This document shows positions 4,913 to 54,075 of a stretch of DNA of 64,000 nucleotides, piece by piece (position 1 is the stretch's first letter; each line of letters begins with the position of its first letter). This DNA is from Pecten maximus. Taxonomy: Eukaryota. The stretch is from positions 19,778,001 to 19,842,000 of the forward strand of contig NC_047026.1 of the NCBI RefSeq assembly GCF_902652985.1, given 5' to 3'. A program made the position numbers and the translations under genes. The notes beneath the pieces were generated by a model, which worked only from the letters and a program-made list of their open reading frames with translations, had not been told where the DNA came from and searched no databases.

Positions 4913-7900
4913 GCTCACTCAACGTAAAAAATGTGCAAAGTAATACAGTATTTGTACAGGAACTCTTGAATCACCTAGATATTTTATGCATACAAGAGCA
5001 CTGGCTCTTTGACTTTCAACTTCATACTTTAAGCAACCTATCAGCAAAACATGTACACCATGGAAAATCAGTTGACAGTATCGATCCTATCACTCCATAC
5101 CAGGTACCACGCGGATATGGTGGAGTAGCTATTTTATTCAATAAAAACCTAGATATAAAGATGAAGAAACATCCTGATGGGAACAACAGAATCACAGTTC
5201 TAGAGGTATTCTCAGATCCTCCCCTACTCATTTCTAATGTTTATATGCCATCTCGAGGGAACTCTACTAAGGCAGACTACCAAGCCACTCTAGACGAACT
5301 ACAAGAAATATTATTCAAATTCAGTAACACTCATGCAATCCTAGTTTCTGGAGATTTCAATGCTTCGCTGGCATCTGGGAGGGAGAATGACCGGGATGTA
5401 ATGCTACAGTCCTTCTGCAAACTTCATGATCTCTCAACCCTCCAGTCTGGCTCACCAACATTCTTCCATGTTAACGATATCCACAGTGCAGAGATAGACT
5501 ACATACTATTCAACAAACGTTGTGAACCTCTGGTACAGTCATGTAACGTTGGACATAAAGACCACCTCAACCTTTCGGACCATATACCTGTGGACGTATC
5601 CCTAAGACTATCCTTACAAGAAAGGAAAGGCACTACTACCATATACCCCAAGCCAAACTGGGACAAATGCGATACCCACGCATACAAGAACTTCATTAAC
5701 AGAAATCTGAGAGAACCACCCGAGGATCTTACCAACCAGACAGAGCTTGACATTTACAAACAAGTACAGCACCTCTGCGATACTCTTAACAAGGCAGGCC
5801 AATGCAGTATAGAGGGGTTCAAACCAAAAGTTACACTGAAAACCAAACGCATCAGAACATGGAGTGCGGAAATTCAAGAAGCGGTAAAAGGTACAAAGAA
5901 GGCAATGTGGAGCTGGAAACAAAATGGCAAACCCAGGAACAGGGATGATATACACTACTCTAACCTAAAACAACATAAAAGGAAACTACAAAAACTCCAA
6001 CGACAAGAATCCTCAAAACGCAGAAACCAACTTCACGAAGAAATTATGAACTCAGATGGAGACCCAAAACTATTTCATAAACTAGTCAGACAACAGCGCT
6101 CTACTACCAAGGAGCATATTAATGAACTTACTGTAAATGGTACAATTTTACAAGATAAGGAACAGATCCTACAAGGCTGGGCTGAGCACTTTGAAAATCT
6201 TGCAACTCCTTCAACAAATCCTGAGTTCAATGAAGAACACAAAGATAATATTAACACAGACCTATGTCTAATAGAGGAACTATGCTCATCTCAGCAGGGA
6301 TCCATTGAACCTATATCAACGGAAGAGATCTTTAAAGCAATCCGTAGGCTTAACTCTAACAAAGCTGCAGACATATTTGGCATCACTGGTGAACATTTGA
6401 AACATGCTCCAGAGTCAGCAGTCAGATTCCTCTATGCTATACTTAATACCATCATATACAAGAAGGAAATACCAAAAATACTAAAAGAAGGCATTGTATC
6501 GCCTGTATTCAAGAAAGGGGATGCTACAAACCCTTCGAACTACAGGGGTATCACAGTCACCACCATAATCCTCAAAATATTAGAGCATATACTCAATGCC
6601 AGGCATTCAAACATACTCAGTAAAGATCAATCTAAACTACAGACTGGCTTCACAAAGAGCACCTCATCCATTAATTCTGCACTTATAGTATCAGAATGCA
6701 TCAACCAAGCCAAGATAGACAAACGACGACTTCTGATGACTACGCTGGATGCACAGAAAGCCTTCGATGTCGTAGACCACAATATACTCCTTCATAAACT
6801 ATATTTCGATGGGATCCAAGGACACGACTGGCTCCTCATGAAAAACCTGTACTCCGAAGTCTCTTCCAGGGTAAAATGGCAAAGTGGCTTATCAGAACCC
6901 TTCCAAGTCAACCAGGGAGTTAGACAAGGAGGAATCCTCTCCACTTCCCACTACAAGAGATATAACAACTCACTCTTACTCAATTTGGAGGATAGATTTG
7001 AAGGGGCAACCATAGGCTCGATAGAAATACCACATACCACATGTGCAGACGACGTAGCCCTGCTGTCTCACGACCCAAAGGAACTACAGTGCATGATGGA
7101 CGTAGTGGAAAACTATGCAAGTGACTCAAGGTATACCATCAACCCGACAAAAAGCAATGTCCTGCAGTTCAACACAAAGGATGCAGATACTTTCCACATG
7201 TACTCCAAAGAAGTGAAAAATCCATCTGAAACAGAACACTTGGGGATAAAGAGAAACTTGGACAACGCCCTCAATGTCGACAGCAAAATCCAGCTAGCTC
7301 GTCGTACAACATACTCTTTGATGGGCTCCGGCCTCCATGGCAAGACGGGACTAAATCAACAGGTCAAGGCTAAACTGTGGAATACCTACGTCGTCCCACG
7401 ACTGCTATATGGTATGGAAATATTCAAAATCAACCAGACCAAGAAGAAACATCTGGAAACATACCAAAACAAAACCATAAAACAGATGCAGCACCTACCT
7501 GACAGAACAGCTACGTCCGCAGCATTAGGTCTATTGGGTATTATACCAATTGAAGCCGCTATTGACAAAAACATGATGAACTTATTCTTTAGACTTACTA
7601 ACAACCCAAATACAGTGGAATTCGATATTGCGCTACGACAGCTTGCAGTACATGATATCGATGCAAACAGCTGGTTCTCGCTGGTTAGAAGAACCCTCCA
7701 CAAATATGATCTTCCAAGCGCTTACAACATCATGACTGAACACAGGACAGAAGACTCCTGGAAATCACTGCTAAATCAAGCAATATGTAAGAAAATTGAA
7801 GCCACCTGGAAAGCAGATATAGAGGCAAAGCAAAGCCTAAAATACCTTAATCCAAATGCAGTGAGCATAAACAAGGTTCACCAGACATACAGATATGTCC

Positions 7901-8316
7901 ATGTCAACAGTCATGATATACACAGAGCAGAGGTCAAATCAAGGATAGTAACAGGTACCTACAATCTACAGTCAAATAAAGCAGTCTTCAACCAGTACGC
8001 CGTTAACCCAATTTGTAAACTCTGTCAACAAGCCCCAGAAACAAGACAACATTTCATAGCAGAATGCCACCAGTATAATCAGCAAAGAGATGCCGTCAAG
8101 AACAAACTCCAGCTCCTAGAGCCCATATCGAACTGTCCAAAACTCCTAGGGGATCCAGAGCTCTTTACACAACTCATTATAGACAGCTCTCATGAAGCAA
8201 TAAGCCATACTGTTGAGCTCAATGACAACGTTACATCAAGTATCGAGCTACACAGCCGGGAGTACTTATTCTCAATCCACCTATGCAGAAGTAAAAAAAT
8301 CCAGTTGACCAGCTGA
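4843..8316 (+). CDS. LINE ORF2: AP-like endonuclease, reverse transcriptase and C-terminal CCHC finger
   Basis: APE motifs SLNV, QEHW, GGVAI, NVYMP, GDFNA, IDYI, SDH. RT motifs NYRGITV, LDAQKAFD, GVRQGGILS, CADD, HLG. C-terminal CKLC..ETRQHFIAEC. The frame opens after the TAA at 4840-4842 and the first ATG is only at 5161. Confidence 0.97.
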   Translation, partial: PVFFIQGPSLNSNVEGKSKCLRLGSLNVKNVQSNTVFVQELLNHLDILCIQEHWLFDFQLHTLSNLSAKHVHHGKSVDSIDPITPYQVPRGYGGVAILFNKNLDIKMKKHPDGNNRITVLEVFSDPPLLISNVYMPSRGNSTKADYQATLDELQEILFKFSNTHAILVSGDFNASLASGRENDRDVMLQSFCKLHDLSTLQSGSPTFFHVNDIHSAEIDYILFNKRCEPLVQSCNVGHKDHLNLSDHIPVDVSLRLSLQERKGTTTIYPKPNWDKCDTHAYKNFINRNLREPPEDLTNQTELDIYKQVQHLCDTLNKAGQCSIEGFKPKVTLKTKRIRTWSAEIQEAVKGTKKAMWSWKQNGKPRNRDDIHYSNLKQHKRKLQKLQRQESSKRRNQLHEEIMNSDGDPKLFHKLVRQQRSTTKEHINELTVNGTILQDKEQILQGWAEHFENLATPSTNPEFNEEHKDNINTDLCLIEELCSSQQGSIEPISTEEIFKAIRRLNSNKAADIFGITGEHLKHAPESAVRFLYAILNTIIYKKEIPKILKEGIVSPVFKKGDATNPSNYRGITVTTIILKILEHILNARHSNILSKDQSKLQTGFTKSTSSINSALIVSECINQAKIDKRRLLMTTLDAQKAFDVVDHNILLHKLYFDGIQGHDWLLMKNLYSEVSSRVKWQSGLSEPFQVNQGVRQGGILSTSHYKRYNNSLLLNLEDRFEGATIGSIEIPHTTCADDVALLSHDPKELQCMMDVVENYASDSRYTINPTKSNVLQFNTKDADTFHMYSKEVKNPSETEHLGIKRNLDNALNVDSKIQLARRTTYSLMGSGLHGKTGLNQQVKAKLWNTYVVPRLLYGMEIFKINQTKKKHLETYQNKTIKQMQHLPDRTATSAALGLLGIIPIEAAIDKNMMNLFFRLTNNPNTVEFDIALRQLAVHDIDANSWFSLVRRTLHKYDLPSAYNIMTEHRTEDSWKSLLNQAICKKIEATWKADIEAKQSLKYLNPNAVSINKVHQTYRYVHVNSHDIHRAEVKSRIVTGTYNLQSNKAVFNQYAVNPICKLCQQAPETRQHFIAECHQYNQQRDAVKNKLQLLEPISNCPKLLGDPELFTQLIIDSSHEAISHTVELNDNVTSSIELHSREYLFSIHLCRSKKIQLTS

Positions 8317-8869
8317 ATTAGTAGGGGTCTCCACAACCCAATTGGTTCTACTCAAATACTAATACTGATAGAGTTAAGATTAAACTCTTTTTATCCCTTT
8401 TAATTATTTTTAAATATTTTAAAAATTTTTTTTAAACAAACGATCCCCAAACCCTTATCACCACAAAGACTATGAACATTGAATGAACTGTGTGTACATA
8501 TTGTATATAGTTGCCGCAAACTGCAAGGATATCACTACGCCCTGGAAATAGTGCCTTACTCTACGCTCATCGAAGCGGTGCCTCGGAAAGTCATCGAGGG
8601 TATCTACGACACAACAACAACAACATGGCTGCCTGAGAGCGAAAATACGACCTAACGGAATAACAGAGGCGCTATATCTATCCTGTAACAGCGAACGCCG
8701 TCGTACAAAATGCATACAACTTTTCTAAAGCTGGTAGTTATATCAAACCATCATATTACCGCTGTTCTGATGTAATAAATCCCCCTAACTAGCTACGTAT
8801 AAACACATCTATTACCCGACTCGACTACACATGACGTTCCAATCACGTTCTGTGCACGCGAAATCCAAC

Positions 8870-9236
8870 ATGGCGGACTTGACCATGATTGCGTCAGCGT
8901 CCTATACGTTTTTGTCGTTTTTCAACGAGGACGAAGACGATACTGTAGAAACAGTAGCGGCGGTTTGTACAAAAAGAAACGAACGTACCCGAATTCCTTT
9001 TTATGTAGAGACTATTGTCAAATATTATGAAGAACAGGAGCTCGAGTTTCATTCACATTTCAGAATGACCAGGAGTTTTTTTGAAATCTTAATAACTTAG
9101 ATCTTATTCATGGCACTGGTAAAGTGCCTGTCTATCATGAGCAGGGCTGTAAGCCCATATCTATTGAAAAGTAAGTTTTGGTAACCATATGTTAGCCAAT
9201 AAAGATTCACATAGAGAGATAATAGCAGACCGTTTC
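8870..9236 (+). pseudogene. N-terminal fragment of a PIF/Harbinger (HARBI1-like) transposase
   Basis: FHSHFRMTRSFFEIL, followed across stops and frameshifts by PISIEK*VLVT..LANKDSHRE..IADRF, matching the Harbinger HTH region. Truncated before the DDE domain. Confidence 0.7.
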
Positions 9237-9389: not shown

Positions 9390-10815
9390 ACTTATTCGTT
9401 TACTCTTTACTAATAAACACTTTAAATGGTTCAAAACTAATTATTAAGCAATCCCATCATCCAGTCGACCATTTCATTCCTTATCCATACCTAGTTTCTT
9501 CTTCAATTCCTTCATTACTTATTCGAATTTCTCATTACTTATTCGATTCCTTCATTACTTATTCGATTTCTCTTCAATAATGAATACTTAAAATGGTTCA
9601 AAACTAATCATTACGCATTCCCATCATCCAGTCGACCATTTCATTCCTTATCCATACCTAGTTTCTTCTTCAATTCCTTCATTACTTATTCGAATTTCTC
9701 ATTACTTATTCGATTCCTTCATTACTTATTCGATTTCTCTTCAATAATGAATACTTAAAATGGTTCAAAACTAATCATTACGCATTCCCATCATCCAGTC
9801 GACCATTTCATTCCTTATCCATACCTAGTTTCTTCTTCAATTCCTTCATTACTTATTCGAATTTCTCATTACTTATTCGATTCCTTCATTACTTATTCGA
9901 TTTCTCTTCAATAATGAACACTTAAAATGGTTCAAAACTAATCATTACGCATTCCCATCATCCAGTCGACCATTTCATTCCTAATCCATACCTAGTTTCT
10001 TCTTCAATTCCTTCATTACTTATTCGAATTTCTCATTACTTATTCGATTTCTCTTCAATAATGAACACTTTAAATGGTTCAAAACTAATCATTACGCATT
10101 CCCATCATCCAGTCGACCATTTCATTCCTTATCCATACCTAGTTTCTTCTTCAATTCCTTCATTACTTATTCGAATTTCTCATTACTTATTCGATTCCTT
10201 CATTACTTATTCGATTTCTCTTCAATAATGAACACTTAAAATGGTTCAAAACTAATCATTACGCATTCCCATCATCCAGTCGACCATTTCATTCCTTATC
10301 CATACCTAGTTTCTTCTTCAATTCCTTCATTACTTATTCGAATTTCTCATTACTTATTCGATTTCTCTTCAATAATGAACACTTTAAATGGTTCAAAACT
10401 AATCATTACGCATTCCCATCATCCAGTCGACCATTTCATTCCTTATCCATACCTAGTTTCTTCTTCAATTCCTTCATTACTTATTCGAATTTCTCATTAC
10501 TTATTCGATTCATTCATTACTTATTCGATTTCTCTTCAATAATGAACACTTAAAATGGTTCAAAACTAATTATCACGCATTCCCATCATCCAGTCGACCA
10601 TTTCATTCCTTATCAATACCTAGTTTCTTCTTCAATTCCTTCATTACTTATTCGAATTTCTCATTACTTATTCGATTTCTCTTCAATAATGAACACTTTA
10701 AATGATTCAAAACTAATCATTACGCATTCCCATCATCCAGTCGACCATTTCATTCCTTATCCATACCTAGTTTCTTCTTCAATTCCTTCATTACTTATTC
10801 GATGCTCCCATTACT
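9390..10815 (+). repeat. Left-arm tandem array of the foldback element (167/147-bp units built from ~20-bp cattacttattcga subrepeats)
   Basis: Anchor aaatggttcaaaac at 9424, 9591, 9758, 9925, 10072, 10239, 10386, 10553, and a variant at 10700. Confidence 0.95.
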
Positions 10816-14022: not shown

Positions 14023-14821
14023 TTTTTAGCTCACCTGCCCGAAGGGCAAGTGAGCTTATGCCATGGTGCGGCGTCCGTCGTCCGTCCGGTTGTCCGGCCG
14101 TCCGGCGTCAACTTTTTCATTTAAACAACTTCTTCTCAATAACCAAGAGGCCCAGGAACTTCATATTGGGCCTGTAGTATGCTGGGGTGAAGGGCTACCA
14201 AGTTGTTAAAATAAATTACTTTGACCTTCATTCAAGGTCACAGGGGTCAAATACGCTATAACCTTCAAACGACTTCTTCTCAATAACCAAAAGGTCCAGG
14301 GACTTGATATTGGGCCTGTAGCATGCTGGGATGAAGGGCTACCAAGTTTGTTAAAATAAATGACCTCGACCTTCATTCAAGGTCACATGGGTCAAATAGG
14401 TTAAAATCTTTAAAAGACTTCTTCTCAATAACCAAGAGGCCCAGGGACTTGATATTGGGCCTGTAGCATGCTTGGGTGAAGGGCTACCAAGTTTGTTCAA
14501 ATAGATGACCTTGACCTTCATTCAAGGTCACATGGGTCAAATAGGTTAAAATCTTTAAAAGACTTCTTCTCAATAACCAAGAGGCCCAGGGACTTGATAT
14601 TGGGCCTGTCTGTAGCATGCTTAGAGCCAAGAGCCAAGACCCAATCTTAGGCCAATAGTATGCTGGAATGAAAAAAAATATATTGACATGAACAAACCTA
14701 GCTTACTCTGATATTTGAATAAAGTTATTATCAGCATATAGTATCTGTAGAAATGACCTCAATCAACTGCAAATTTGCTCTAGAGTCAGATGAGCGATAC
14801 AGGCCCATTGGGCCTCTTGTT
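14023..14821 (+). mobile_element. Non-autonomous Helentron-derived element (HINE/pearl-like) with ~3.5 internal 145-bp repeats
   Basis: 5' tttttagctcacctg...gtgagct hairpin and (gtcc) microsatellite. Repeat anchors at 14129, 14273, 14418, 14563. 3' cagatgagcga followed by the palindrome aggcccattgggcct and cttgtt. Confidence 0.85.
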
Positions 14822-16094: not shown

Positions 16095-16950
16095 CATAGA
16101 GAAAGAGAAATCGAATAAGTAATGAGAAAATCGAATAAGTAATGGGTGAATTGAACAAGTAATAATGTATGGATTAGGAATGGAATGGTGGAATGTGTAT
16201 TGGGAATGCCTATTAATTAGTTTTGAGCCATCTTAAGTTTTAATTAGTAGAGAGAAATCGAATAAGTAATGAGAAAATCGAATAAGTAACGAGAGAGAAA
16301 CGAATAAGTAATGGGTGAATTGAACAAGTAATAATGTATGGATTAGGAATGGAATGGTGGAATGTGCATTGGGAATGCCTATTAATTAGTTTTGAACCAT
16401 CTTAAGTGTTAATTAGTAAAGAGAAATCGAATAAGTAATGAGAAAATCGAATAAGTAATGAGAGAGAATCGAATAAGTAATGGGTGAATTGAACAAGTAA
16501 TAATGTATGGATTAGGAATGGAATGGTGGAATGTGCATTGGGAATGCCTATTAATTAGTTTTGAACCATCTTAAGTGTTAATTAGTAAAGAGAAATCGAA
16601 TAAGTAATGAGAAAATCGAATAAGTAATGAGAGAGAATCGAATAAGTAATGGGTGAATTGAACAAGTAATAATGTATGGATTAGGAATGGAATGGTGGAA
16701 TGTGCATTAGGAATGCCAATTAATTAGTTTTGAACCATCTTAAGTGTTAATTAGTAGAGAGAAATCGAATAAGTAATGAGAAAATCGAATAAGTAATGAG
16801 AGAGAATCGAATAAGTAATGGGGGAATTGAACAAGTAATAATGTATGGATTAGGAATGGAATGGTGGAATGTGCATTGGGAATGCCTATTAATTAGTTTT
16901 GAACCATCTTAAGTGTTAATTAGTAAAGAGAAATCGAATAAGTAATGGAA
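16095..16950 (-). repeat. Right-arm tandem array of the foldback element (169-bp units)
   Basis: Anchor ggattaggaatggaatgg at 16171, 16340, 16509, 16678, 16847. Confidence 0.95.
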
Positions 16951-17111: not shown

Positions 17112-20100
17112 ATGGCGGCAGTTACGCCAGGAAAACGCAAGCATTTCGATGAGGGACGTGACGATGCCCGAGCGGTAGATATTTCAATGAAGAGATGTCG
17201 CATGGACAATTGCTTTTCCACAACTGGCCACATGTGCATAGACTTCCCTGAACGGTTATTGGATGGAGTTATGAACGTGTTGATGAACAATCTCTGTGGC
17301 AGGTATTGCGGTGCACTGTTGACTGTAACTCCACTCATTGTCATCAACAGTAACGCCGCTGACGAGAGTAGGCCAGTAGGATACACATTTCCAAAAGCAT
17401 ACTGTAGTATTAGTAAATATGATAAGCAGTTCGTGTTGTCGTCTCTCTTCAAGACTGGCTTAGATATTTTAATGGATTATGTGGAACAAAAGAAACTTCC
17501 TCCAAACAACGAAGACAAATATGTACTGGACATTCTCCTGCATTTCATTTTCACGTTGACTAGCACAGGTAACAGAAGTTTTTAAAGCGATCTGATTAAA
17601 ATAGCCCTGCCATCCGCGCTCTGTTCCGTAAACTACTCTGCTACATGTACATGTACAGTTGTACGTCTGAGTTTTAGTTTACAGAATGGGATCAGGTTTT
17701 TGTAAAAGTAATAGTTAAGTCAATGAGGCATTGTTGTTTGGGGTCTGATTTACTCATACCCAATTGAACTCAAACACTGTTATTGATCGGATTTTAGGTC
17801 AACAGAGTGTAGAAATTATGCACCAAGTGACCAACATGTATATTGTGGGGAAATGTATACGTATTTCATTTTAGTTTAAAAACCTAAAAATCAACTTTTG
17901 GTTTTATTTCAGAACTCGGGCAACAATTAAGGCCTCTTTGTCTCTTGTTGGATTTAAATTAAAGCTTTTAAGAACTTCAGGTGTTTTCATTTTCCTTTAC
18001 TTCTCTATTCAGTGATGAAATTGTTACTCTAAGCAGTAACAGTAACTGTTACCCAGATGCAGGATCATACAGTAATATGTGGGTATCATGTATATATGCG
18101 GTTTTGCCCAACTTGTCCCAACGCCACATACAAATGTACTTACATGTACCATAACCGTAGATTCAAATATCCTGACCAATAGCCTGTTTACCATTAGCTA
18201 TCTGCTGTTGTATAAGACACAGGGATTTATTGCTGGAATCTAGACAGCAATTGTGAGAGATTTACAAGTCGACGTATTTGACAGAATATTGATACAGAAT
18301 TCAATTATTTCAGATGATGCCTTTTGCCACAGTAAACAAGTAGATGTTATTTAGTGATAAGTAGGGAGATTTATGTTTTGAAGCAGAGATTTTTTTTTGT
18401 ATCATGATGTTGCATTGTTTCTTTAATAATAATTCAGTTCTAAGTCTGTATTTAGATTCAACTAAACATAATTCAGATAGTTTTGAGCAATGACCATAAA
18501 GGCACATGGGCCTCTTTTTTGGACAAACTATTCTGATTAAAAGAAGGTGTTTGTTCATGAACACTTCTATTTCATTATTTGATTTAGTTTAAACATATTT
18601 TATTGACATAAAATGATAAAGGGATAAGTTGGTCAGTTTTACCAACATTTAACTTCTCCTGTAATAATTATTTGATAATTGGGAGTAACTGCTCATAATG
18701 CTTTCAGAAAATAGCATGTCGAGGGTCTTGACCACACCCCTTAAGTCAGTAATCAAAATGGTTAAGATCCCAACTTATAACTGTACATTGTATCTATACA
18801 AAAGCCTTGTTGGATGTCGATGAGAAATAAGATTTGCTTTTGAGAATCGCTAAGACAAGATCTAGAGAGCAGGGAAACCCTTTGATATTAACATTACACT
18901 ACTATTTCAATATTTTTTTCACAATTTCTTAAATACCAGGTTATACAGGCCCTCTAGACCTCTTGTTTATATATATTTGTCAGTATCATTCAACAGGAGT
19001 GCCACTAGGTGTGGGCCAGGATACATGCTAAATAAAGTGTAGTAAAGTGGTAAAAGTGTTCAATGTCCAGCAGTTCTTTATAAAATTAAACCTTTTTCAA
19101 GTTTATTGACCAACAGATGACTATATATTGTTACTTGATTTTTATCTCTGTTCAATAAATGTTCTGTGTATTTTTTCAGGTGCACAGTCACCATTTGATG
19201 AATTGGATCATTTGTCAGAAACTGATCGCTCCATTATTTTGGCCAATCATCTGTTTGGAAAGCTGTCAACATCATCACATTTTGTCATCAATAAACATTG
19301 GAAAGGGAGAGCACCAAATGCAGCCTCATGTTCTTGTTCCAATCCTTCCTGTAAAATGACAGGCCTGTTTGGAGACACAAGTATAGGTAACTCAAATAGC
19401 TGCATTTTCCAAGTATTCAAATAGCTTTTCATGTTCAATACCTTTACTGGCTCAAATATAGCAGTTCACTTCTGAAAATAAACCCATAGTTATATAATTA
19501 GTAGCTTGTCTTCTACAATACTTAACCGAGGAGCTGTAGTTTTACACTTCTACACATTTTTCAGAAACATAACTTGGTGGTTCTTCCTTAGATCCAAGTT
19601 TTAATATTAACAACATGTTTAGACCCTTTGGGGCCTCCCCTGAGTTGAAACGTGTCAACAACTCTCTCATTAAAATTTGGATCAGAGGAAGAACTGCCAT
19701 GTTTGGCTCACTCTTTTAAGTACATGTATTGATATTAGATGCATTATGTAAAAAGAAACTGCACCATAGTCGTCTATTTGACACATGACTGACTGATGAA
19801 TAATACATGTAGATTGACCCAATAACCTGTAATGTTCCATAGTTGATATGACAATTAACCAGTCTCAGTTGGTTTAATGTGTACTACAATGTTAACTCTA
19901 GTGTACTACAGTGTTATTTCTAGTGCACTATTGTTAACTCCAGTGTACTGCAGTGTTATTTCTAGTGCACTATTGTTAACTCCAGTGTACTGCAGTGTTA
20001 TTTCTAGTGCACTATTGTTAACTCCAGTGTACTGCAGTGTGAACTCTAGTGCACTATTGTTAACTCCAGTGTACTGCAGTGTTATTTCTAGTGCACTATT

Positions 20101-21529
20101 GTTAACTCCAGTGTTATTTCTAGTGCACTATTGTGTATAACTCCAGTGTACTGCAGTGTGAACTCTAGTGTACTACAGTGTTAACTCCAGTGCTCTACAG
20201 TATTAACTCCAGTGTACTACAGTGTTAACTCCAGTGTACTACAGTGTGAACTCTAGTGTACTACAGTGTTAACTCCAGTGCTCTACAGTATTAACTCCAG
20301 TGCACTACAGTGTTAACTCCAGTGCACTACAGTATTAACTCCAGTGCACTACAGTGTTAACTCCAGTGTACTACAGTGTTAACTCCAATGTACTACGGTG
20401 TTAACCCCAGCGTACTACTGTTAACTCCAGTGTACTTCAGTGTTAACTCCAATGCACTAGTCTACCAAGTTTAGTTAGCTCCTAGTTGTATGTGTAGGTC
20501 TAATCAAGTAGTTTTAAACTTCACAAACTTGATATTTTTATGCTAAGCTATATTGACATACCCATACCAAGTAATATTATACTATTTCATAGAAAATACT
20601 TGACAATCTTTCTCAAATCTTATGTATAAGGTCCTGTTGTTTCCTAGTTGTTTATGTTTACCTTTGAGACTAATGAGACAAACATATAGCTATATAGGTC
20701 AACAGGTGACCTTCTTGGATTTTGAAAGTTAAGTTTGTTAATGGTATTTCTCAGAAAGTACTCAAGACAGTCTTTCTCAGATTATATTTGTAAGTTCCCT
20801 AAAGTACTTAGTTTTACATGTTCAAAATTTATGTGAATGTTAAGGTTCTTGGTCAGTCTTCTTTCTTAATTGATGTGTTTTTCTTGTTGCTTTACAGGGA
20901 ATGAAACTGTTTGGCATGGCAATTTGGATGTAATTGTCAACGATGAAGTTGTTGTAGAAGTTCTTGAAGATTTGCAAAATAGTCCAGGGGGAAAATCACC
21001 TGTCAAAGTGAAGTTAAAAACTTCTTCATTTTCAAGAAATCCTCAGATAATCGCTAAAACAATAGTGTTTTCTTTTCTTCAGAAGAAGAGGCACCCAGAG
21101 AGAAGTCATTTTCTTACACCCTGTATTGGAGTAACTGGTAGTGATTTGGTGATCTATTGTTATGACTCTGAACATGATACCCTTCTGGAAAGCAGCACTA
21201 TTCCTTTGTTTGCTCCTGATTCGGTGACTGGAGGCATCAACCTAACCGCCATTGTGGTAACCTGGCTTGTTGTCAATCACAAATATCTTTGCAGTGGTTT
21301 GATTCATATGGATGATTTGAAGACACTAAAGTCAGGATTCTTTGACCAGATACAAGCCAAGTGTGATGTATATGAAAATGAGTTACAGATCGGTGGGATT
21401 GTTCCACAGAATTACAATGCACCTGCTTGTTCTGCCCCAAATAATCTTGTCTTTGATGCTACAGCTGTCATCGCCAATAATCGATGTTTAAAGATTGGAA
21501 TTACTCGAAATGGTCTTTCAAAAAAATAA
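17112..21529 (+). CDS. Gene A: uncharacterised 3-exon protein (~431 aa) with Cys cluster and putative PD-(D/E)xK-like C-terminal domain; exons 17112-17568, 19180-19386, 20898-21529
   Basis: Canonical GT-AG phase-1 introns (acag|gtaac, ttttcag|gt, atag|gtaac, tttacag|gg) join three ORFs into one uninterrupted 1296-nt frame. Clear paralogy with gene B. An extra small exon cannot be excluded, and the domain call is inference. Confidence 0.8.
19575..19697. mobile_element. Small MITE in intron 2 of gene A
   Basis: Inverted ends gttcttcct..gatccaagttttaat / attaaaatttggatc..aggaagaac. Confidence 0.5.
19877..20460 (+). repeat. Minisatellite of ~22-bp units (gtgttaactccagtgtactaca), partly as 45-bp dimers
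   Basis: Directly visible tandem array. Confidence 0.95.
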
Positions 21530-23676
21530 CGAGACGGAACAATATTGATGATGTCTGTTTATACCTTGTAAAAATACTTGATCTGAATGACATGTTAGAG
21601 AGTAGAGAAGTCATTGCTGATGGTACAACATGTATTTTAATTAGTAATCAGACTGATATATTTATTGCCTGTCCATAACATAACTACATCTTCAGAGTTT
21701 ATGATATGCAAATGTACAACTATATATTAATCCTCAGTTGGTTTAAACCTAAAAAAGAATTACCAGGCACTCAATGAATGAGATGTTGATAAGAAGATGA
21801 TTTTCTTTTGGAATTAATGAATCTGCTTGTACTATTTTGGTGAACGAAGTTTATGTGAGTTGACTTTCTCTCCTTAGCTGGAAAGACATTTTGCTATTCA
21901 AAATTCACAGATAGTTAATGCTGAAATGTATGGTTGTACAGTTTTTAACTCCCTATCTGAAGTAAAATTTCGATGTTGAGCCATGTGTACTTGGAAATCA
22001 AAAATGTTTTGTAAAAGAATGTAAATTGGATGTAAGAGAGCCAAAAGGTAATGTTTTGTAATATTATACTAAAATGAGATTGAAGCTTTGCTTTATTGTT
22101 TTGCCAATATCTAAGGTAAAAATACCCCACTGTAGAATTATTATACTCATCGTATACTTTTCAAGGGTTAGAATTGCACTACTTCTGTTTACATGTAACA
22201 ACTCTCAAATACTAGTGTAAACAATCCTGGTTTGTACATGTCTATAATTTGGTACTATGATGAAGTAAGTGTACCTCAAACTTATTTGATGAATATTATC
22301 AGATATTCACTGGCATGTAACATTGAATAAAGAACAAAGAATGACTTTGTGTACATTTTTTTATATTATGTAACCTCCATCAATGACAGTTTTGCACATT
22401 TTATGTTTTTGATTATCTCCTTCCAACAGAATGTGAGAAGTATGATTTAATAAACTCGTACATGCATTATCCTGCACTGCATTGATTGTCATGCTTCATT
22501 TCCCTGCAATAACTGCAGTAAATGTTACAGGTTTTTTTCAAACTTGGCAACAAGGAAAAATGTCTTAAGGGCTCTGTAAAGTTTCATTGCCACTTATGCT
22601 GGACGCTATTTGATGGAGTTATGGTCCCTTGGTTAGCTAGAAACGGTGTTTTCTGCTGTGTCCATGCATTAACTACAACACATGTTTTCAGATTTTCTTC
22701 AATCTAAGTAACAAGATTAAACGTCCCTAGGGCTCAGCCAAATTGCATTGTCACTTTTACCTTATTTTTGACGGAATTATTGTTATGTATATAGTTGAAT
22801 GGGTGTGAGGAGATTACACATTACAGTCTAAGGGAGATAATAAAATCCAGTATGTATCAGAGTTATTCCCCCTTTTGTAAATCTCTTGTGATAAAAGATT
22901 ATAATTGTTAGAATACAGAAAGATTTGGAACTGGAAGGACGTGTTTATTGTTCATATTGTCTAACTATAATATCCGTAATGTAAATCAGCGAGTCCCAAA
23001 CAACATAACAGTTCATTACATTATGGCCCACTGATTAACTAAAAACATAAGTTTTCTGCTGTTTCGTATAATAACTGGAACAGTTGTTAAAAGATTATGT
23101 TCAAACTTAATAACAAAGTTAAATGCCTTAACTGGCTTAAGGCTACTTAGGCCAAGTTCGATTGTCACTTTTGTCGGACGTTATTTGGCAGACTTATGGC
23201 CCTTTATGGTTGAAAAAGTTTGTGCTGTTTCCGTGTAATAACTCCCACAAATATTGTCCATCGGGTTTTCATCAAAATTAATAAAATGGTTTTCGCCACT
23301 TGATTTATGAAAAAAAGATGTAATTTGACGTTAAATAACTCTCCACAATATTTTTTTTCGAAAGTCTTCAAACTTATAAGAACAGAATTCAATATATTAA
23401 GGGCTCTGCCAAATTTGTGATGGGGTTCGGTAATGGCAGATGACAAGAGAAGTCTAGCAAAATGAGTTTTATATATTACTTTATTACGTAATACATGTTC
23501 AATAAAGCACCAAACTAATGTGTCAGGCTATGAGTTTCAAGCAATACATGATGGCTCAACACAAAATTTATCATTCTGCCGAGCTTTAATGACATGTTTA
23601 CACCTGACCACAAAACATATTTACCTACAATATATCAGGAAAGCGGGGGATATCATTTCACGAATTTGCATCGTTT

Positions 23677-24093
23677 TGTAACAGAGCACATGATTAATTA
23701 AATTTAAATCACTGCCTCCGCTGGGGATCGAACCCGGGACCTCTGGCTTACTAGTCTTACGCTCAACCGATCGAGCTAAAGAGAAGATCTCTCTAGCCAA
23801 GCGGTATATTGCGGCTAGTATTTACCAAGGTTACATACTCCCCCTCCAGGAAAGAACTCGTCCTCGGGTTTCCAGGAGTAACAGCGATGCTTGTGGAGCA
23901 ATCCTGAGTATTTTTCCCGGGTCCCTACGTGGGCGCCAATGTAACAGAGCACATGATTAATTAAATTTAAATCACTGCCTCCGCTGGGGATCGAACCCGG
24001 GACCTCCGGCTTACTAGTCTTACGCTCAACCGATCGAGCTAAAGATCTCTCTAGCCAAGCGGTATATTGCGGCTAGTATTTACCAAGGTTACA
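23677..24093 (-). mobile_element. TRIM (non-autonomous LTR retrotransposon) with tRNA-like sequence in each LTR, Helenus-like
   Basis: LTRs 23677-23835 and 23940-24093 (TGTAAC...GTTACA) differ by 1 substitution and a 5-bp indel. PBS TGGCGCCCACGTAGGGAC (23938-23921, tRNA-Lys-like). PPT ggagggggagta (23847-23836). 4-bp TSD gttt. A box TAGCTCGATCGG and B box GGTTCGATCC in each LTR. Confidence 0.92.
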
Positions 24094-25882
24094 GTTTGAC
24101 CCTGTGAGCATAAATTGAGTAAATATTAATGGATTTTGATGAAAAATTATATCAATATTATATGATCTTGAGCAATTTCCAAGTTGAGACCAATTTGATC
24201 TTAAAACTCAGTATATACTTATCACAACTCAGATCACCTATAAGGCCCTTGGGCCTCTTGTTAAGCACTATATTTATCAGAAATAACTAAAAGGATTTTT
24301 TCTCATATTTCGAATGTAATTTCAATCAAATGTCTCCAGTGACTCTTAGTTACCAATTTTGAATTTTTGACCTATTGGAATCGAGAATTTGTGAGCATGT
24401 TAGTAGTTATTTAAAAAAAAATTGACGATTTTTTCTTTATTGTCCGAAGTGCCTATTTGGGATGATCAGCGAAAGAAGATAACTTACAGCGCATGTGGTA
24501 TTTCTTTAAATGGAAAATTTACGCAAGTATTTAAAATCCTCTTGTACAAAATGAAACATTTAAACCATTTTGGACGAAACATCCTTGCTTTGGGCAAGAC
24601 GAGTTCAATTTTGTATAGCCGGAGACTCCGACTCCCGGAGGGAGTGATGAATATCAACCATATTTGGTGTGGACCATTCATTTGTGATAGAAGTTTCAAA
24701 ATTATACCAGTTGACTCCTTGGTTTGAGGGACAGGGCCAACGTTTTTAACTTGAACAATATCAAGATAATCTTGTAAGTATATGTATATACAACGAGAAG
24801 CACAGTGATCATATTAAAAGATGTTATCCTTGGTCTGACTCCACCCTTACTGACTGAAAGCCTGAGTGATAACTTTGTGATATTTAAAATCCCCACCCAG
24901 AGCAACACTCATTCTATGATTGGACATCAAGAGACTACCACAATCATGACATGTGTCTGGCCATGATCCTAGCCATAGCGACTTCTGGGCCGTAATTTAA
25001 CATTATGATTGTTGAGATCCGCAACCCATAACCATGTATGTATGTGGGTATATTGGGTTTGCAGTATTACGTCTTTCTTTCAACTTAAGGAACAGGAGAA
25101 GATTAATCAGCCACTATCTTTAAAAAACTCTACATCAAGATTTCTTAAATAGCTCACAATAGAACGTCTTCATCCAATTAGTAAAAGCGCATTTTCTGCA
25201 ACTTATACATATATGTAAAGGAGATACATGGCTAATAAATCGAGGAAATTAACTTTTCATTTGATGAATTTCTATTTCTTCGGAATGAAAGGTGGAAACT
25301 GTTCCTCCTACAGGATTTTTTTATTACAGTTTTTTTTTCTGATATTGCATGTCCATGTACATGTAGCATGGGTATATATTACACTATATATAAAAAAAAA
25401 AAAACGAGAAAAAATCCATTTTGTATTGATGTAGGTTATTAAAATTAGATACTGTAAAGTTTTTACATTTTCTATATATAGATCTTATGATTCATTGAGT
25501 TTTTCCTAAGTGTAATTTTAAATCAACTACCATTCACGATTTACCAGTGTGGAATATATAATCGATCATCACTTAGGACCTAATTGTGCTCTTGATAGTC
25601 TCATATCTGATGCTCAGTATAGGTTATTATAACTCGACTCGGGTATTTTCCAGATGTTCCAAAGTTGGATAATTAAAAAATTGAAGATTTTTATCATTTA
25701 TAATGTCATTTTGACATGTAGTATTGCCCTTTCTGCCAGCGATGATTTCCGTAGAACACATTCAGGTCCGTTCATGTCTTTAGGAAGACCCGTTACATCT
25801 TCTTTCACTACACATGCGCATTACATGAAAAAAGTGAGTTTGCTCTAAATCGTACATTGACGCTCGAAATAGGCCTACGAGA

Positions 25883-28800
25883 ATGGCGACCAGGGATGAA
25901 ACTCCAGTGGCGTGGAAAATGTTGAAAGACGTTATTGACGAAAGAAAAAATGTGCAAGAGATGATGACACTCCAAATATTGTCATGTAATTGTTTTGGGG
26001 GTTGTCATTTTACAGATGCGTTCGTGACAACGCAAGAGAAGCTGAGTATGTTTTCAAAGCTTTCCCCTTCTGGTGAGAAAGCAAACGGGTTATACTTTCA
26101 ACATGTATGGGACATCCCGAAACTTTCTAGGCTGATTCATGAAAAACAGCGAGAAGAAGAAGATACCAGTTGTATTCAATCAACTAAACGACCTAGATTA
26201 TTAAGTGTGGAGGAAAAGAATGCTTACGTGTGTTTGCAAACTTATTTAAATGGTAAGCTCAAGTTAAACAAATGTGAAGTGATCCTCGGGATCGATTTCA
26301 GTAATACAGGCTCCGTCGAAACATAAAAAATATCTAAATATGCCAAAAAAAAAAAAAAAATATTATGTACCTCTTTTGACTTTTTAAGACCCTTTTTTAA
26401 CTTGAAATAATATTCCGCATAAACATTGTAGTAGTTGGTGACTACCTCACTGAACAATTTAAAGTATGGTATGCATGTCGCAAGCCATCCATAGCAATTA
26501 GGGTCAAGTGTCTAGCCCAATGATGCAGCACTGACAGCACAGACCATCCTGTTTCTCGGCTTCTGGATAGGGAGCATCGTGCTGCACACCAATGATCTTC
26601 ACCTGAGGTTATGTTGCTGATGCTCTGTGATGATGTCGTAGATGTTCATCGACAATGTCATGTAGTTTTGATGATATAGTTACTACATGTATATGTCATC
26701 AAACAAGCCAGAGACATACTAGTATCACTTATTCACTGTAATTGTGTTTTTAGCCCATCATCATATTCAAATTGCCCTGTCATTGGTCCATTTGTCATCC
26801 ATCTGTAAATAATCCTTGTTTATGCTATTTCTGGAAAAGAACTGGAGGGATAAAAATGGATACATTATAAATTTTGTTTGTATTGTCATTTTCCAAACAT
26901 TAAAATGAGGTCAGATAAATTTTGATAAAATATAAATGATGTACAAACTACCAGTATATAGATGGAAAATTCCCCCTAGCGTGAAGCTAGAAGGCAACCA
27001 TATCACTATGTACAATCAAAACCTGCTACACAGATACAGTAGACAAGTTCTGCTGAATAACCAAAAGGTCCAGGGTGATAATATTCGGCAGGTAGCATAC
27101 TTTGATGAAAGGCTACCAAGATTGTTAAAATGAATGACCTTCATCCATATTCAATGTCAGAGAGGTCAAATAAGATAAATTGTTAAACAACTTCTGAAGA
27201 ATAACCAAAAGCATGGTGAGAAGTCTTTCAAGTTTGTTCAAATGAATGACCTTAATCTTAATCTAAAATCACAGGGGTCAAATATGTCTCTTGTTGATAA
27301 TAAAAAAGTCCAGGTTGGTTATATTTGGTCAGTTACGGGCAGAGTTAGTAATGAATAGCCAAAATGCATAGAGTATCAGTCATAGTAACTTTAATTTGTT
27401 CTGAAATTTAATTTTAGTCCACTTGGAGGGTTACAAATGTGAAATGAAGACCAGATTTGAAGTTATATTTGTCGTTTCGATGTATGCTGTATACACATAT
27501 TTTGTTTTCTTTCTTGATGATTACTTCAACAGGTGTATAAGTAAAGTATCATTTGTGAACTGAATAAATTTGTTTCAGACCAGTAACATGTATGAAACTA
27601 AGGTTTAACTGGATTATAACTAAAAGACCACATTAATTACTACAAAAAAATTGTTTTTCTTTTTCCATTTAAGATATAGATATTCACCAGAATAGTCTTG
27701 AGAAAGTGTTAGATGGTGCAACAGCATGCTCCAAGTCTGATGTTGTAAAGGTTGTTGACGCTCACCTATTTGGACCTCTGAGTGGAGGAAACTGTTACAT
27801 TGATAATCGCATGGAGAGTAGTGCGTGCAGCTGTGGATGTGGCAAACAACTTAAGGGTGGTCCTACAGGCCTGGGTGAGTTCATGTTCAGGGCGGTGGGG
27901 TGAATCAATGGTAACATACTTGCCTTTCACCTAAGTTGCCGGGGTTCGATTCCCAGCTTGGACCTCACAAATATATGGGGTCACCTGCCAGGCACATGGG
28001 TTTTCCCTAGCAAACAAGAGTGATTAATATAAGTTGACTGTGAGCTAAATTATGTTAGGGGGTTGGAGGGGGCATCTGTCAATTTTACCTTCAACACACT
28101 TTTAGTCCTGAACAATGGATTATGACCTAAATTTGACCCGCAGTGCCCAGTGCAATTGGGCAGGAGGGACTCAGTTTTTACCCCACCATTATGGAATGAT
28201 GGGCTCTTCGATTAATCCTTTGTCAGTTGTCTGTCGTTCTGTTTGTCATTTTGTGTCCTTAACCATTGTTGATGCCCCGAGGATCATTAATGGGTGGGGT
28301 GCAAAATGAGTCCTAACACTTAATCCTTTGAGTGTCTTCTCCAAATAAGAACGATTTTCTCCCATATCTGATTGGTAGCATTCCTGAAATTAAATAGCTG
28401 ACCTCAAGGGTGATAAGGTGGGGCTAAAAAGACCTTTTATATCATCAATACTGTATCCCCACCCTTTAATTATTCACAAGCGAGGATGGACAGGGTTTTT
28501 GTACCTGCCATAGGGGCTTATTTATTTGGTTAGTTGACTTAGTTGAGTTCCCCATTTTATAACCATATGTAACGATGCTTAACATTAAGAGATGAACAAA
28601 ACGTTTAACTATTCTATAAATATGGTTTGTTGGGTCTAACTCAACCCCAGGGTATTAAATAGTCATCATTTCATCACAGTATCCACTTTATAACAGTCAC
28701 CGCCTCATCACACTCACCACCTCATTACAGTCACGAACCTCACCACAGTCACCACCTCACCACAGTCACCACCTCATTACAGTCACCACCTCATTACAGT

Positions 28801-31368
28801 CACCACAGTCACCACCTCATTACAGTCACCACCTCACCACAGTCACCACCTCATCACATTCACCGCCTCACCACAGTCACCACCTCATCAGTCACCACCT
28901 CATCACAGTCACCACCTCATCCAGTCACCACCTTATCACAGTTACACCTTGACAGTCACCACCTCACCACCTCATCACATTCACCACCTCATCAGTCACC
29001 GCCTCACCACAGTCACCACCTCATCACATTCACCACCTCATCACATTCACCACCTCATCAGTCACCGACTCACCACAGTCACCACCTCATCACATTCACC
29101 ACCTCATCAGTCACCGCCTCATCACATTCACCACCTCACCACAGTCACCACCTCATCATAGTCACCACCTCATCACAGTCACCACCTCATCACATTCACC
29201 TCCTCATCAGTCACCGCCTAATCACACTTACCGCCTCACCAGCTCACCACAGTCACCACCTCATCACAGTCACCACCTCATCACAGACACCACCTCATCA
29301 CAGTCACCACCTCATCACAGTCACCACCTCATCACATTAACCACCTCATCACAGTCATCACCTCATCATACTCACCGCCTTATCACAGTCACCACCTCAT
29401 CACAGTCACCACCTCATCACATTAACCACCTCATCACAGTCACCACCTCATCACAGTCACCACCTCACCACATTCACCACCTCACCATATTCACCACCTC
29501 ACCACAGTCTCCACCTCGTCACACTCACCGCCTCACTACAGTCACCACCTCATTAGTCACCACCTCGTCACATTCACCACCTCATCACATTCACCACCTC
29601 ATCACAGTCACCACCTCATCACATTCACCACCTCACCAGTCACCACCTCATCACAGTCACCACCTCATCACATTCACCACCTCATCACAGTCACCACCTC
29701 ATCACACTCACCACCTCACCAGTCACCACCTCATCACAGTCACCACCTCATCACATTCACCACCTCATCACATTCACCACCTCATCACACTCGACGCCTC
29801 ACCACAGTCACCACCTCATTACAGTTACCACCTCATCACATTCACAATCTCATTACAGTCACCACCTCATCAGTCACCACCTCATTATACTCACCACCTC
29901 ATCACATTCACCACCTCATCACATTGACCACTTCATCAGTCACCACCTCATCACAGTCACCACTTCATCAGTCACCACCTCATCAGTCACCACCTCATCA
30001 GTCACCACCTCATCACAGTCACCACCTCATTTTACTCACCACCTCACCACAGTCACCACCTCATCACAGTCACCACTTCATCAGTCACCACCTCATCACA
30101 GTCACCACTTCATCAGTCACCACCTCATCACAGTCACCACCTCATCAGTCACCACCTCATCAGTCACCACCTCATCACAGTCACCACCTCATCAGTCACC
30201 ACCTCATCACAGTCACCACCTCATCAGTCACCACCTCATCAGTCACCACCTCATTATACTCACCACCTCATCACATTCACCACCTCGTCACATTCACCAC
30301 CTCATCACAGTCACCATCTCATCAGTCACCATCTCATCAGTCACCACCTCATCACAGTCACCACCTCATCACATTTACCACCTCATCACAGTCACCACTT
30401 CATCAGTCACCACGTCATCACATTCACCACCTCATCATACTCACCGCCTTACCACAGTCACCACCTCATCACAGTTACTACCTCATCACAGTCACCACCT
30501 CATCACATTCACCACCTCATCATACTCACCGCCTCACCACAGTCACCACTTTATCAGTCACCACCTCATCCACAGTCACCACCTCATCCACAGTCACCAC
30601 CTCATCACAGTCACCACCTCACCACAGTCACCACCTCATCACAGTCACAACTTCATAAGTCACCACCTTCTCTAATTGATCACCTCGTCACATTCATCAA
30701 CTCTTGTTTTGTTTATTTTTACAGGAGTTGAATACACCTGGCATGGTTATGCTGACATTTTTATTAACCAGACTGTACCTGTGGCAGTGTGGTCAGAACT
30801 GGAACAGCCAGAACCGGACAGTTATATACCTGATTCCGAAGAACAATGGCAGGGTTTGCCAAGTGACATACAAGAGGTTGAAGATAAAAAAGTCAGAGAT
30901 GCATTTCCAGAAACCAATCCTAAATCTGCTGCTTGTAGTCGGTTAATGGCCCAGACAATTACCAATGCTTTTGCTCAAGTAAATCAAAATGAGCAACTTG
31001 CAGGGTTAGCAGTCCCGGCATTTGGTTGTACTCCTTCAAACTTAATGTTTTATGCATATGATTGCAAAAATGATGTACTTCTCCGGAAAATATTTGGAGT
31101 TAACTTTGTTCATAAGCAATCTCTTGCAGAAGCTGCTGTCTTGGTCTGGCTACATTTGAATTTTACAGTTTTTATGAAAGAGGATGTAACAAGTATTGAA
31201 GCACATCCAGAGCTTGAAAACTTCAAATCAAAATTTTGCATCAATGACTCGATCCGTTCATGGTACAAAAATGTCAAAGTTGGTGAAAAAGTTACAGGAC
31301 TCAAACACTCATCTAGAAATGAAACGCATGTGGAATTGGTCACTACAAGAAAAGTCAAAATCGATTAG
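25883..31368 (+). CDS. Gene B: uncharacterised 3-exon protein (~404 aa), paralogue of gene A; exons 25883-26252, 27674-27874, 30725-31368
   Basis: Phase-1 GT-AG introns (aatg|gtaag, ttaag|at, ctgg|gtgagt, tttacag|ga) give an open 1215-nt frame. Shared motifs HLFGxLS, CSC..C, GxTxxG, WHGxxD and YxYDxxxDxLL. AATAAA at ~31417. Confidence 0.8.
27890..28030 (+). mobile_element. Degenerate tRNA-derived SINE (V-SINE-like)
   Basis: A-box-like head, B box ggttcgattccc, then tgggttttcc. Confidence 0.5.
28690..30700 (+). repeat. ~2-kb C-rich minisatellite (cacagtcaccacctcat, 14-17-bp variants) in intron 2 of gene B
   Basis: Directly visible tandem array ending ~25 bp before the exon 3 acceptor. Confidence 0.97.
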
Positions 31369-31584: not shown

Positions 31585-31733
31585 ACAGGCCAAATATGAA
31601 ATTCCTGGGCCTCTTGGTTAACGAGAAGAAATTGTTTAAATGAAAAAGTTGACGCCGGACGGACGGAGGGACGGACGACGGACGCCGCACCACGGCATAA
31701 GCTCACTTGCCCTTCGGGCAGGTGAGCTAAAAA
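31585..31733 (-). mobile_element. 5' fragment of the same HINE family as 14023-14821
   Basis: Reverse complement of tttttagctcacctgcccgaagggcaagtgagcttatgcc... Confidence 0.85.
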
Positions 31734-52941: not shown

Positions 52942-54075
52942 TGTTGTGAAAATAGGTTTGACTGTATTACTTTACCAATGACTTGTTATTGTAACTATGC
53001 AAAACGGTATGTCGTGTCAGTATTTAAACGTTAGTCAATAATGCTTTTATAATACGTTGCAAATTACATACTTTAGAAGTAATATCTTGTAGTTTTGAAT
53101 ATGAGAAACAAACGTGCCATGTTGTTAGAAACTTCTGGATAATGTCATCCGAGTATATATATATCGCTCGCGTTTATGTGTCAAATATTCCCGCAAACTC
53201 TTGTCAGTTTACATTGTGACGTCATACTTCCGGTTAATTTCGGGAGCTATTTTTAGTATTATACGTCATTGGGAATCGCGCTTTTGTAAATAGTCATTAT
53301 TTTAGAAGTGATAAATACTTACATAAGAATGTGTACAGTTGAATTTCTGTATTTTATTTGTTGTTGTTGTTACCATTGTGGCACGTGAATTGTACTATAA
53401 AAACTGGCTGCAACGGGTTTTCAAAGGGCAGAACAGCTGGTAGCGTAAGGGAAGCAACTCGCATAAACAAGGTAACTTTTAGGCATTTTTTGCATAAGTA
53501 CTTCGGTACGATTGTATTTGGTATTGTGAGTTGCTGGTTATTAGAATAAGCGTTAAAGCATTTATTAGGAATTATCAGACATATGATTAGGATCAGTTTA
53601 GCTAGGATAAATGTGTGAAGTACGTAAGGTATAAGCACATATGATGGAAACCTCGGATAGATTTAGGAATAGAAATTAGATAGGATAATCGCGGAGTACG
53701 CAATGTACAAGCGAATTGATATGTATAACTATGAGTGGTTAAGCGTGGAGTACGTAATGTTCCAGCGCATTGTTAGGGATTGATGTAGATTGTAGATTAG
53801 TTAGTTTAGCGCAGAATAAGCTTTATTGCAGTTTATTAGATTTTTCATAGTGGTACGTTTTATAAGTACCGACTAGTTCATATATATTCATTAATAGCTG
53901 TTCTGTTCCGCATTGATGGGTGTGTACTGTGTGAACTGAGAGGATTGTGTAATATTGCCAATTTCATTGTATATATTGAGATTTTGGGATTCGTTCCTAA
54001 ATAAACCAAATCATTTTACGACGTTGTCTATCTTTCCATCCACCTCGCAAAACTACAAAAGTAAAAAACACAACA
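52942..54075 (+). mobile_element. 5' LTR (1134 bp) of a Gypsy retrotransposon
   Basis: TGTTGTG...CACAACA terminal inverted repeat; AATAAA at ~54000; immediately followed by a PBS. Confidence 0.85.

Follow-up and report, generated by a model that had tools for sequence, protein, structure and literature searches.

Which proteins are encoded by two neighbouring genes, A and B, on the forward strand of Pecten maximus contig NC_047026.1, and to which family do they belong? The genes lie in a 64,000-nucleotide window (positions 19,778,001 to 19,842,000 of the contig), for which a sequence-only reading had proposed a tandem pair of three-exon genes with phase 1 introns, coding for putative zinc-binding nuclease-like effectors. 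The proposed gene structures are confirmed (Table 1) and the sequence blocks quoted at the time are present. All four introns are of the GT-AG type and in phase 1, and intron 2 of both genes splits a Gly codon five codons 5' of WHG.

Table 1. Features of genes A and B, with positions counted from the first nucleotide of the window.
Feature	Position	Strand	Content
Gene A	17112-17568, 19180-19386, 20898-21529	+	Three exons; 431 aa
Gene A exon 1	17112..17568	+	Family-conserved N-terminal alpha/beta domain; basic motifs KRK and KRCR
Gene A exon 2	19180..19386	+	Predicted first core helix (E166, H176); Cys cluster C203, C205, C210 (19329-19352)
Gene A exon 3	20898..21529	+	WHGNLD (D232, 20927-20929), VKVK (K258, 21005-21007), QIIAK helix, remaining core, stop
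Gene A 3' untranslated region	21530..22446	+	Covered by a spliced contig beginning in exon 2 (run X1)
Gene B	25883-26252, 27674-27874, 30725-31368	+	Three exons; 404 aa
Gene B exon 1	25883..26252	+	N-terminal domain as in gene A, by profile; basic motif KRPR
Gene B exon 2	27674..27874	+	Helix with H154; Cys cluster C175, C177, C179 (27826-27840)
Simple tandem array within gene B intron 2	28659..30680		
Gene B exon 3	30725..31368	+	WHGYAD (D201, 30754-30756), acidic loop, E-D-K (30880-30888)
Gene B exon 3, 3' part			RLMAQ helix, remaining core, stop; E-D-K position is E-V-K in contig G000:C271

Evidence for splicing comes from contigs of four runs, one recorded as RNA and three guessed to be RNA. 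Intron 1 of gene A is joined in contigs of two of these runs and intron 2 in three, a single 940-nt contig covering all three exons, and intron 1 of gene B is joined in all four, those runs having been picked with gene A. For intron 2 of gene B support is limited to the donor, at which contigs of two runs diverge (position 27875). With three of the four introns joined in RNA-type contigs, genes A and B are real, spliced and expressed. A near-identical copy of gene B is present on a colinear second haplotype (contig G000:C271), in which intron 2 spans about 18 kb as compared with 2.85 kb in the window. The second haplotype stops at the 3' end of gene A.

The proteins encoded by A and B share 27% identity over 207 aa (E 1e-15). 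Exon 1 had been described as unalignable, which holds for the pairwise comparison (best E 2.3-2.8) but not for a profile built from 30 distant homologues, which gives each of the two exon-1 proteins a higher score than 500 shuffled versions of it; exon 1 therefore encodes one conserved domain across the family and not the variable N-terminal module that had been suggested. Nor do A and B form an isolated pair, as about 68 places in the P. maximus genome, dispersed over 16 large contigs, and 938 database clusters match the family. Thirty of these clusters were looked up, and all 24 that carry a name are from bivalves; members occur in scallops, oysters, mussels and clams, the database proteins analysed below being drawn from the best 150 matches. 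Stops inside the match are found at three of the roughly 68 genomic places. A and B fall in the two deepest branches of the family. An obligate pairing of one gene of each type was considered and rejected, because the other close neighbours among the matches listed are each of one type, as read by hand.

As had been anticipated, Pfam searches with the exons and with 113 family members gave no match above the cut-off. The PDB sequence search returned unrelated proteins at best (E 0.17-0.2), and Pfam, PADLOC and PHROGs yielded just scattered, weak single-member matches, with no sequence link to any nuclease family. No relative was found among viral contigs, phages and prokaryote genomes by searches that reach close relatives only, and no description of the family was found in open-access text. 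A and B are members of a large unnamed bivalve gene family.

The reading frames of this family are under purifying selection, as their openness had suggested. Values of dN/dS range from 0.14 to 0.53 for the listed close paralogue pairs; over eight disjoint pairs they amount to 0.12 and 0.21 in the core and to 0.65 in the loop, and the closest tested paralogues, with dS of at least 0.37, have dN/dS well under 1. Allelic differences in A and B show no depletion of amino-acid changes (8 of 12 in A), and exon 3 of gene B has an allelic dN/dS of about 1 (10 differences), a pattern that may reflect weak constraint on these two copies. The open frames had also been set against broken transposable-element genes nearby, which does not apply to all of them, for the LINE at 2747-8316 contains two long frames that are open.

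Structural models were made for two homologues standing in for the window proteins, P0005 (48% identical to A; mean pLDDT 87.6) and P0047 (63% identical to B; mean pLDDT 88.1), and were compared with 48,161 chains. For both models the same four entries rank first, namely the mitoribosomal proteins mL37 (Z 9.9 for P0005 and 8.5 for P0047) and mL65 (Z 9.4 and 8.9), followed by the type IIG restriction enzymes BpuSI (Z 7.6 and 7.5) and DrdV (Z 7.3 and 8.1), and mainly further restriction-fold nucleases come after them. The mL37 and mL65 alignments extend over 181-192 residues (rmsd 4.0-4.4, identity 6-10%), and their Z scores of 8.5-9.9 barely exceed the background of 7-8 stated for the tool; those with BpuSI and DrdV are shorter and tighter (128-146 residues, rmsd 2.8-3.5). 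Two Foldseek searches against PDB and one against BFVD gave no match at E <= 0.001. In the Atlas search the nearest named family was PF07147 (0.81 in both queries), and PDDEXK_12, which makes up 55% of a cluster, scored 0.78, both of which serve as leads only. Since the homologue models best match mL37/mL65 and type IIG restriction enzymes, the predicted PD-(D/E)xK (restriction-endonuclease) fold, as proposed earlier, is supported for the family.

The likeness to mL37 and mL65/mS30 (PF07147, PDCD9; 3j7y_5, 7a5f_s3) starts at model residue 26-37 and ends at about 288-330, thus reaching into the exon-1 domain, and the proteins are of similar length (about 400 aa). These mitoribosomal proteins have been described as former endonucleases put to a new use, in which a pseudo-dimer binds rRNA (PMC8998825). 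In contrast to them, the A/B family is multi-copy, has NLS-like motifs and no presequence-like start, and possesses a Cys cluster together with partly kept candidate catalytic residues. The listed family matches (E <= 0.1) include PF07147 for none of the 113 members, and hhalign of the family against two exons of the PF07147 gene that P. maximus carries separately (contig C9) gives a probability under 1%. With the nuclease domains of type IIG and type I restriction enzymes (BpuSI 3s1s, DrdV 7lo5, HsdR 3h1t; HSDR_N PF04313) it shares the core (111-146 residues, rmsd 2.8-3.8, Z 4.8-8.1) and the order of Asp, E-x-K and Q-x-x-A-E. Unlike these enzymes, the bivalve proteins have no methyltransferase or helicase partner, add an N-terminal domain, a Cys cluster and a long acidic loop, and are encoded by intron-containing animal genes, most copies of which have an incomplete motif.

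The candidate strand-2 Asp of WHGxxD (D232 in A, D201 in B), which precedes a predicted strand in the homologue models, occurs in 100 of 107 database proteins, as well as in 35 of 40 copies from the P. maximus genome itself. Conservation of the Cys cluster, claimed along with that of the Asp, is likewise borne out: among 56 members C203 is kept in 52, C205 in 50 and C210 in 37, and H228 and H176 in 54 each, as candidate ligands of a putative zinc site. For the third element, (D/E)-x-K on strand 3, gene B has E-D-K as a candidate; gene A lacks the motif and has VKVK, with that codon invariant in four runs, and roughly two thirds of members lack it too. E-hydrophobic-K is found in 37 of the 107 database proteins (4.0 expected) and in 13 of the 40 genomic copies (1.8 expected), scattered over both main branches; the tree shows 11 changes, of which at least seven are forced. 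In scallop, oyster and clam proteins it recurs nine times as often as in shuffled sequences, with the spacing to the following helix that is expected. In the P0005 model this segment, VEVK there, is a low-confidence loop and not a strand, so that even motif-complete members may lack the usual site. Possible stand-ins for the missing motif in gene A are E242 and K275, and its catalytic residues might have migrated, as described by analogy for PD-EXX-K (PMC3424549). The basic NLS-like motifs pointed out earlier are indeed in excess (43 of 56 members, 16.1 expected); by a crude rule none of the 56 has a mitochondrial-presequence-like start, and only two of the N-termini are as much as mildly hydrophobic.

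Our preferred reading, to which we give a probability of roughly 0.55, is that A and B belong to an old, dispersed bivalve family of PD-(D/E)xK-fold proteins, likely nuclear and acting on nucleic acids. Because most copies, gene A included, are without part of the cutting motif, the family likely mixes working and disarmed nucleases. Its ancestor would have been a metal-dependent endonuclease with the WHGxxD Asp and E-x-K and, next to these, a small zinc site of Cys/His residues. Copies would have arisen by ordinary duplication and been retained by selection, and E-x-K, located where a fast-evolving loop ends, would have disappeared on many occasions; what is left would be binding proteins, or enzymes whose site has been rearranged. 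Gene A would be such a copy that has lost E-x-K and keeps D232, and gene B would retain both E and K. Going by fold and birth-and-death evolution only, the family most likely serves in defence or in genetic conflict, directed at nucleic acid that is foreign or selfish.

It seems rather doubtful that the whole family is non-catalytic and employs the restriction fold as a scaffold for binding RNA or protein, as mL37 and mL65 do, with E-x-K as a decaying relic. The identity of the nearest structures, the scarcity of E-x-K and its place in the loop of high dN/dS, where the model has no strand, are what such a scaffold would lead one to expect, but the persistence of the Asp and the recurrence of E-hydrophobic-K in scallop, oyster and clam argue against it, as a neutral relic is unlikely to survive so long. 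Only tentatively can one suggest that the family is a surviving, partly active sister lineage of the nuclease repurposed as mL37/mL65, expanded in bivalves into dozens of nuclear genes whose active and disarmed products would form pairs to defend the genome.

That A and B are Crinkler-type effectors, joining a swappable header to a toxic restriction-fold domain, as the sequence-only reading had it, appears improbable. Motif order and fold class are in common, Crinkler-like genes are known from free-living eukaryotes (PMC5289972, PMC12957317), and an unnamed Mucoromycota cluster reaches 0.91 in the Atlas search. Crinkler/CR REase effectors (Zhang et al., 2016, as cited in PMC5289972) are also eukaryotic restriction-fold proteins of expanded families, and are nuclear, as the bivalve proteins likely are; the bivalve family differs in having no swappable header, NTPase or kinase and in its free-living animal host, and no sequence match to those effectors was found in the searches above. 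A single conserved N-terminal domain runs throughout the family, none of the 113 members has a Crinkler, NTPase or kinase Pfam match, nor is there such a structural match, and the near lack of hydrophobic N-termini speaks against this architecture as well.

Two inverted arms, at 14023-14175 and 31585-31733, were considered as element ends and rejected, since they are a dispersed repeat that also occurs at 18 of 40 further loci. Although mobile elements with restriction-fold domains are known (PMC5289972) and the copies are dispersed over many contigs, it is very improbable that an unrecognised transposon or virus-derived element carries A and B, be it as cargo or as its catalytic gene. A set of 42 loci of 10-12 kb (extending about 1 kb beyond the stop, with an often partial 5' flank) has no inverted arms in common; no terminal repeats or transposase were found with the family, seven of eight close pairs share little apart from exons and common repeats, there are no young near-identical dispersed copies, given the divergence and constraint of the closest tested paralogues, and there is no close viral, phage or prokaryote relative. 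Such an element could conceivably lie in the remote past of the family.

To our knowledge, few restriction-fold proteins have been described in animals other than those of repair, RNA processing and mobile elements. An unnamed family of which one genome holds dozens of expressed copies would be a candidate for a new arm of bivalve genome defence. As it keeps candidate catalytic residues, these relatives of mL37 and mL65 make the 'repurposed endonuclease' origin of the latter testable, and the recurrent disappearance of the catalytic motif while selection continues offers a natural series on how pseudo-nucleases originate.

Genes A and B are real, expressed genes, placed as the sequence-only reading had it, and both frames proved open when nearby GT and AG sites were tested. 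All of their introns are in phase 1, and the two proteins are 27% identical across 207 amino acids. Junction support comes from contigs of four public runs, one recorded as RNA and three guessed to be RNA: both introns of gene A are joined at the predicted sites, with a single contig covering all three exons, and intron 1 of gene B is joined in all four runs. For intron 2 of gene B the donor is supported (contigs of two runs leave there), and the acceptor lies beyond the compared stretch. The length of this intron differs between the haplotypes through simple-repeat expansion, and the exons remain intact.

Coordinates of the two genes, of neighboring elements in the window, and of a head-to-head pair of family members in L062, another DNA stretch (G000:C271, second-haplotype contig colinear with the window)
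Feature	Position	Strand	Observation
Gene A, exons 1-3	17112-17568, 19180-19386, 20898-21529	+	431 aa frame
Gene B, exons 1-3	25883-26252, 27674-27874, 30725-31368	+	404 aa frame
Gene B, intron 2	27875-30724	+	2.85 kb; ~18 kb in G000:C271
Tandem array	~16100-16950		Stops ~160 bases upstream of gene A start codon
LINE	2747-8316	+	Two long frames without stops: one of 721 aa, measured stop-to-stop, with a weak PHD match; one of 1157 aa with endonuclease and reverse transcriptase domains
~10.8 kb block	~42128-52942		Absent from G000:C271; DDE_Tnp_4 pieces facing YqaJ exon; insertion polymorphism likely, Harbinger/ISL2EU-type element
Genes in this block	49775-50496; 51645-52013	+; -	
LTR-retrotransposon-like frames	54184-57741	+	Extend into 500-base gap; presumably zinc knuckle and protease motifs
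Frames with zf-C17orf113 match	61524-62969	+	Likely hAT-type transposase
L062, first exons of two members	8791-9141; 9614-9979	-; +	~470 bases apart; suggests a shared promoter

The fold was predicted from models of full-length homologues used in place of the proteins of the window: P0005 (48% to A; mean pLDDT 87.6, alignment of 113 sequences) and P0047 (63% to B; 88.1, 106 sequences). Foldseek gave no significant structural match in PDB or BFVD (E ≤ 0.001). An exhaustive structural aligner, which itself cautions that Z below 8 may reflect a common arrangement, returned the same top four for both models: 3j7y_5 (Z 9.9 for P0005 and 8.5 for P0047), 7a5f_s3 (9.4 and 8.9), BpuSI (7.6 and 7.5), and DrdV (7.3 and 8.1). 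Behind these, at Z 3.4-5, come HsdR, DUF820, NucC, McrC, Hjc, and a large number of type II enzymes. The chains 3j7y_5 and 7a5f_s3 are mL37 and mL65, which align over 181-192 residues starting inside the exon-1 domain, whereas the alignment with the type IIG enzymes runs from exon 2 and covers 128-146 residues. Because the two models agree, one fold class dominates, and Atlas, a resource giving clusters and their nearest named family, leads separately to PF07147 (the Pfam family of mL37/mL65), the restriction-endonuclease fold suspected from sequence is probably correct, the top matches of both models being mostly restriction-fold nucleases together with mL37/mL65. The bivalve family falls outside PF07147, and neither its members nor a profile comparison revealed a sequence link to mL37/mL65; common descent with them is therefore something we infer from the models. 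PMC8998825 describes mL37/mL65 as a pseudo-dimer of repurposed endonucleases.

According to PMC3424549, two elements define a PD-(D/E)xK site, an Asp with which strand 2 opens and a Glu-x-Lys carried by strand 3, and site residues are known to migrate to the second helix. The family appears to resemble such proteins both in the fold of the homologue models and in its strand-2 Asp. Of 150 database proteins, 107 had both anchors; 100 of these 107 retain the WHGxxD Asp, as do 35 of 40 own-genome copies. Scored 8-24 residues ahead of the helix anchor, E-hydrophobic-K occurs in 37/107 and 13/40, respectively, vs 4.0 and 1.8 expected from shuffles, and the looser E-x-K in 46/107 and 19/40. On a tree built with the motif's own columns included, E-hydrophobic-K appears in both main branches, needs 11 changes, and clusters no more than shuffled labels; repeated loss of an ancestral E-x-K motif would be the simplest reading. 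Gene A has VKVK at this position, with no variant across the four runs, and its E242 ends the preceding strand while K275 lies on the helix, so its active site may be rearranged. Gene B reads E-D-K in the window and E-V-K in G000:C271. In the P0005 model the E-x-K segment is a loop (pLDDT 53-63). Among 56 full-length rows, the candidate zinc ligands C203, C205, H176, and H228 are each retained in 50-54, and C210 in 37. The main rival reading, that the family is wholly a non-catalytic scaffold, has to be weighed against these motif counts, incomplete in most copies and in excess of shuffles, and seems to us unlikely.

Exon 1, described earlier as unalignable, is so in pairwise comparison of A with B (best E 2.3-2.8). 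When 30 database homologues, each <30% identical to both genes, are combined into a profile, exon 1 of A scores 23.8 bits and that of B 21.9 bits, each above all 500 of its own shuffles; with profiles from the B-like set alone, exon 1 of A is not separable from shuffles. The N-terminus, proposed earlier to be a variable module, is one diverged domain and is not swapped. Basic NLS-like motifs occur in 43 of 56 members vs 16.1 expected and a crude rule found no presequence-like starts among the 56 full-length members, so the proteins are likely nuclear.

Selection on the frames, also suspected earlier, is borne out between paralogues, where dN/dS is 0.14-0.53 (45 closest pairs listed, two pairs saturated). 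Across eight disjoint pairs the ratio is low in the WHG strands (0.12) and the core (0.21) and higher in the tail (0.45) and in the loop (0.65), where alignment is uncertain. Counting against this signal, amino-acid changes are not depleted among alleles (A, 8/12; B exons 1-2, 2/5; B exon 3, 8/10).

Exon 3 of A has 56 matches in the window's own genome and that of B 46; merged by hand, they occupy about 68 places (all lower bounds), 10 on small contigs and the remainder on 16 large ones, with in-match stops at three. The exon-3 acceptor is identically positioned in all 38 loci parsed (40 fetched), and the exon-2 donor is in phase 1 in 32/32 with a parsed motif (37 loci with exon 2 found). The deepest split in the tree of the 40 own-genome copies separates A from B (support 100/100). 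Searching 1.84 billion representatives with a profile of 24 exon-3 sequences retrieved 938 clusters (E ≤ 0.001; the best 150 viewed in detail). Among 30 looked up, 24 are named, every one bivalve (Pecten, Ylistrum, Mizuhopecten, Argopecten, Pinctada, Crassostrea, Saccostrea, Mytilus, Mercenaria, Mactra) and titled 'uncharacterized' or 'hypothetical'. Atlas assigns the sequences to three unnamed clusters from molluscs, with 458, 167, and 116 members, and also to one unnamed Mucoromycota cluster (at 0.91), so the family may extend beyond bivalves.

Two further proposals find no support. Cargo of a mobile element is disfavored: the long inverted arms flanking the pair, considered as element ends, are a dispersed repeat found in 18 of 40 other loci, and 42 loci share no inverted arms within limited flanks. 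In seven of eight close pairs little is shared apart from exons and common repeats; the remaining pair also has introns in common, which fits a segmental duplicate. Searches reaching close relatives found none in viral, phage, or prokaryote collections. The Crinkler-type resemblance fails the architecture tests derived from PMC5289972.

No description of the bivalve family was found in the open-access literature; the accessible text of PMC12957317, whose topic is an ADP-ribosyltransferase, contains neither molluscs nor bivalves on word search. The novelty is an unnamed family with a known fold and an unexpected nearest relative. Our preferred reading, to which we assign a probability of roughly 0.55, is a host family of likely nuclear proteins with a restriction fold that would descend from a metal-dependent endonuclease, a minority of present copies keeping a complete site and the majority being disarmed or rewired, maintained by selection and used most likely in defence or genetic conflict.
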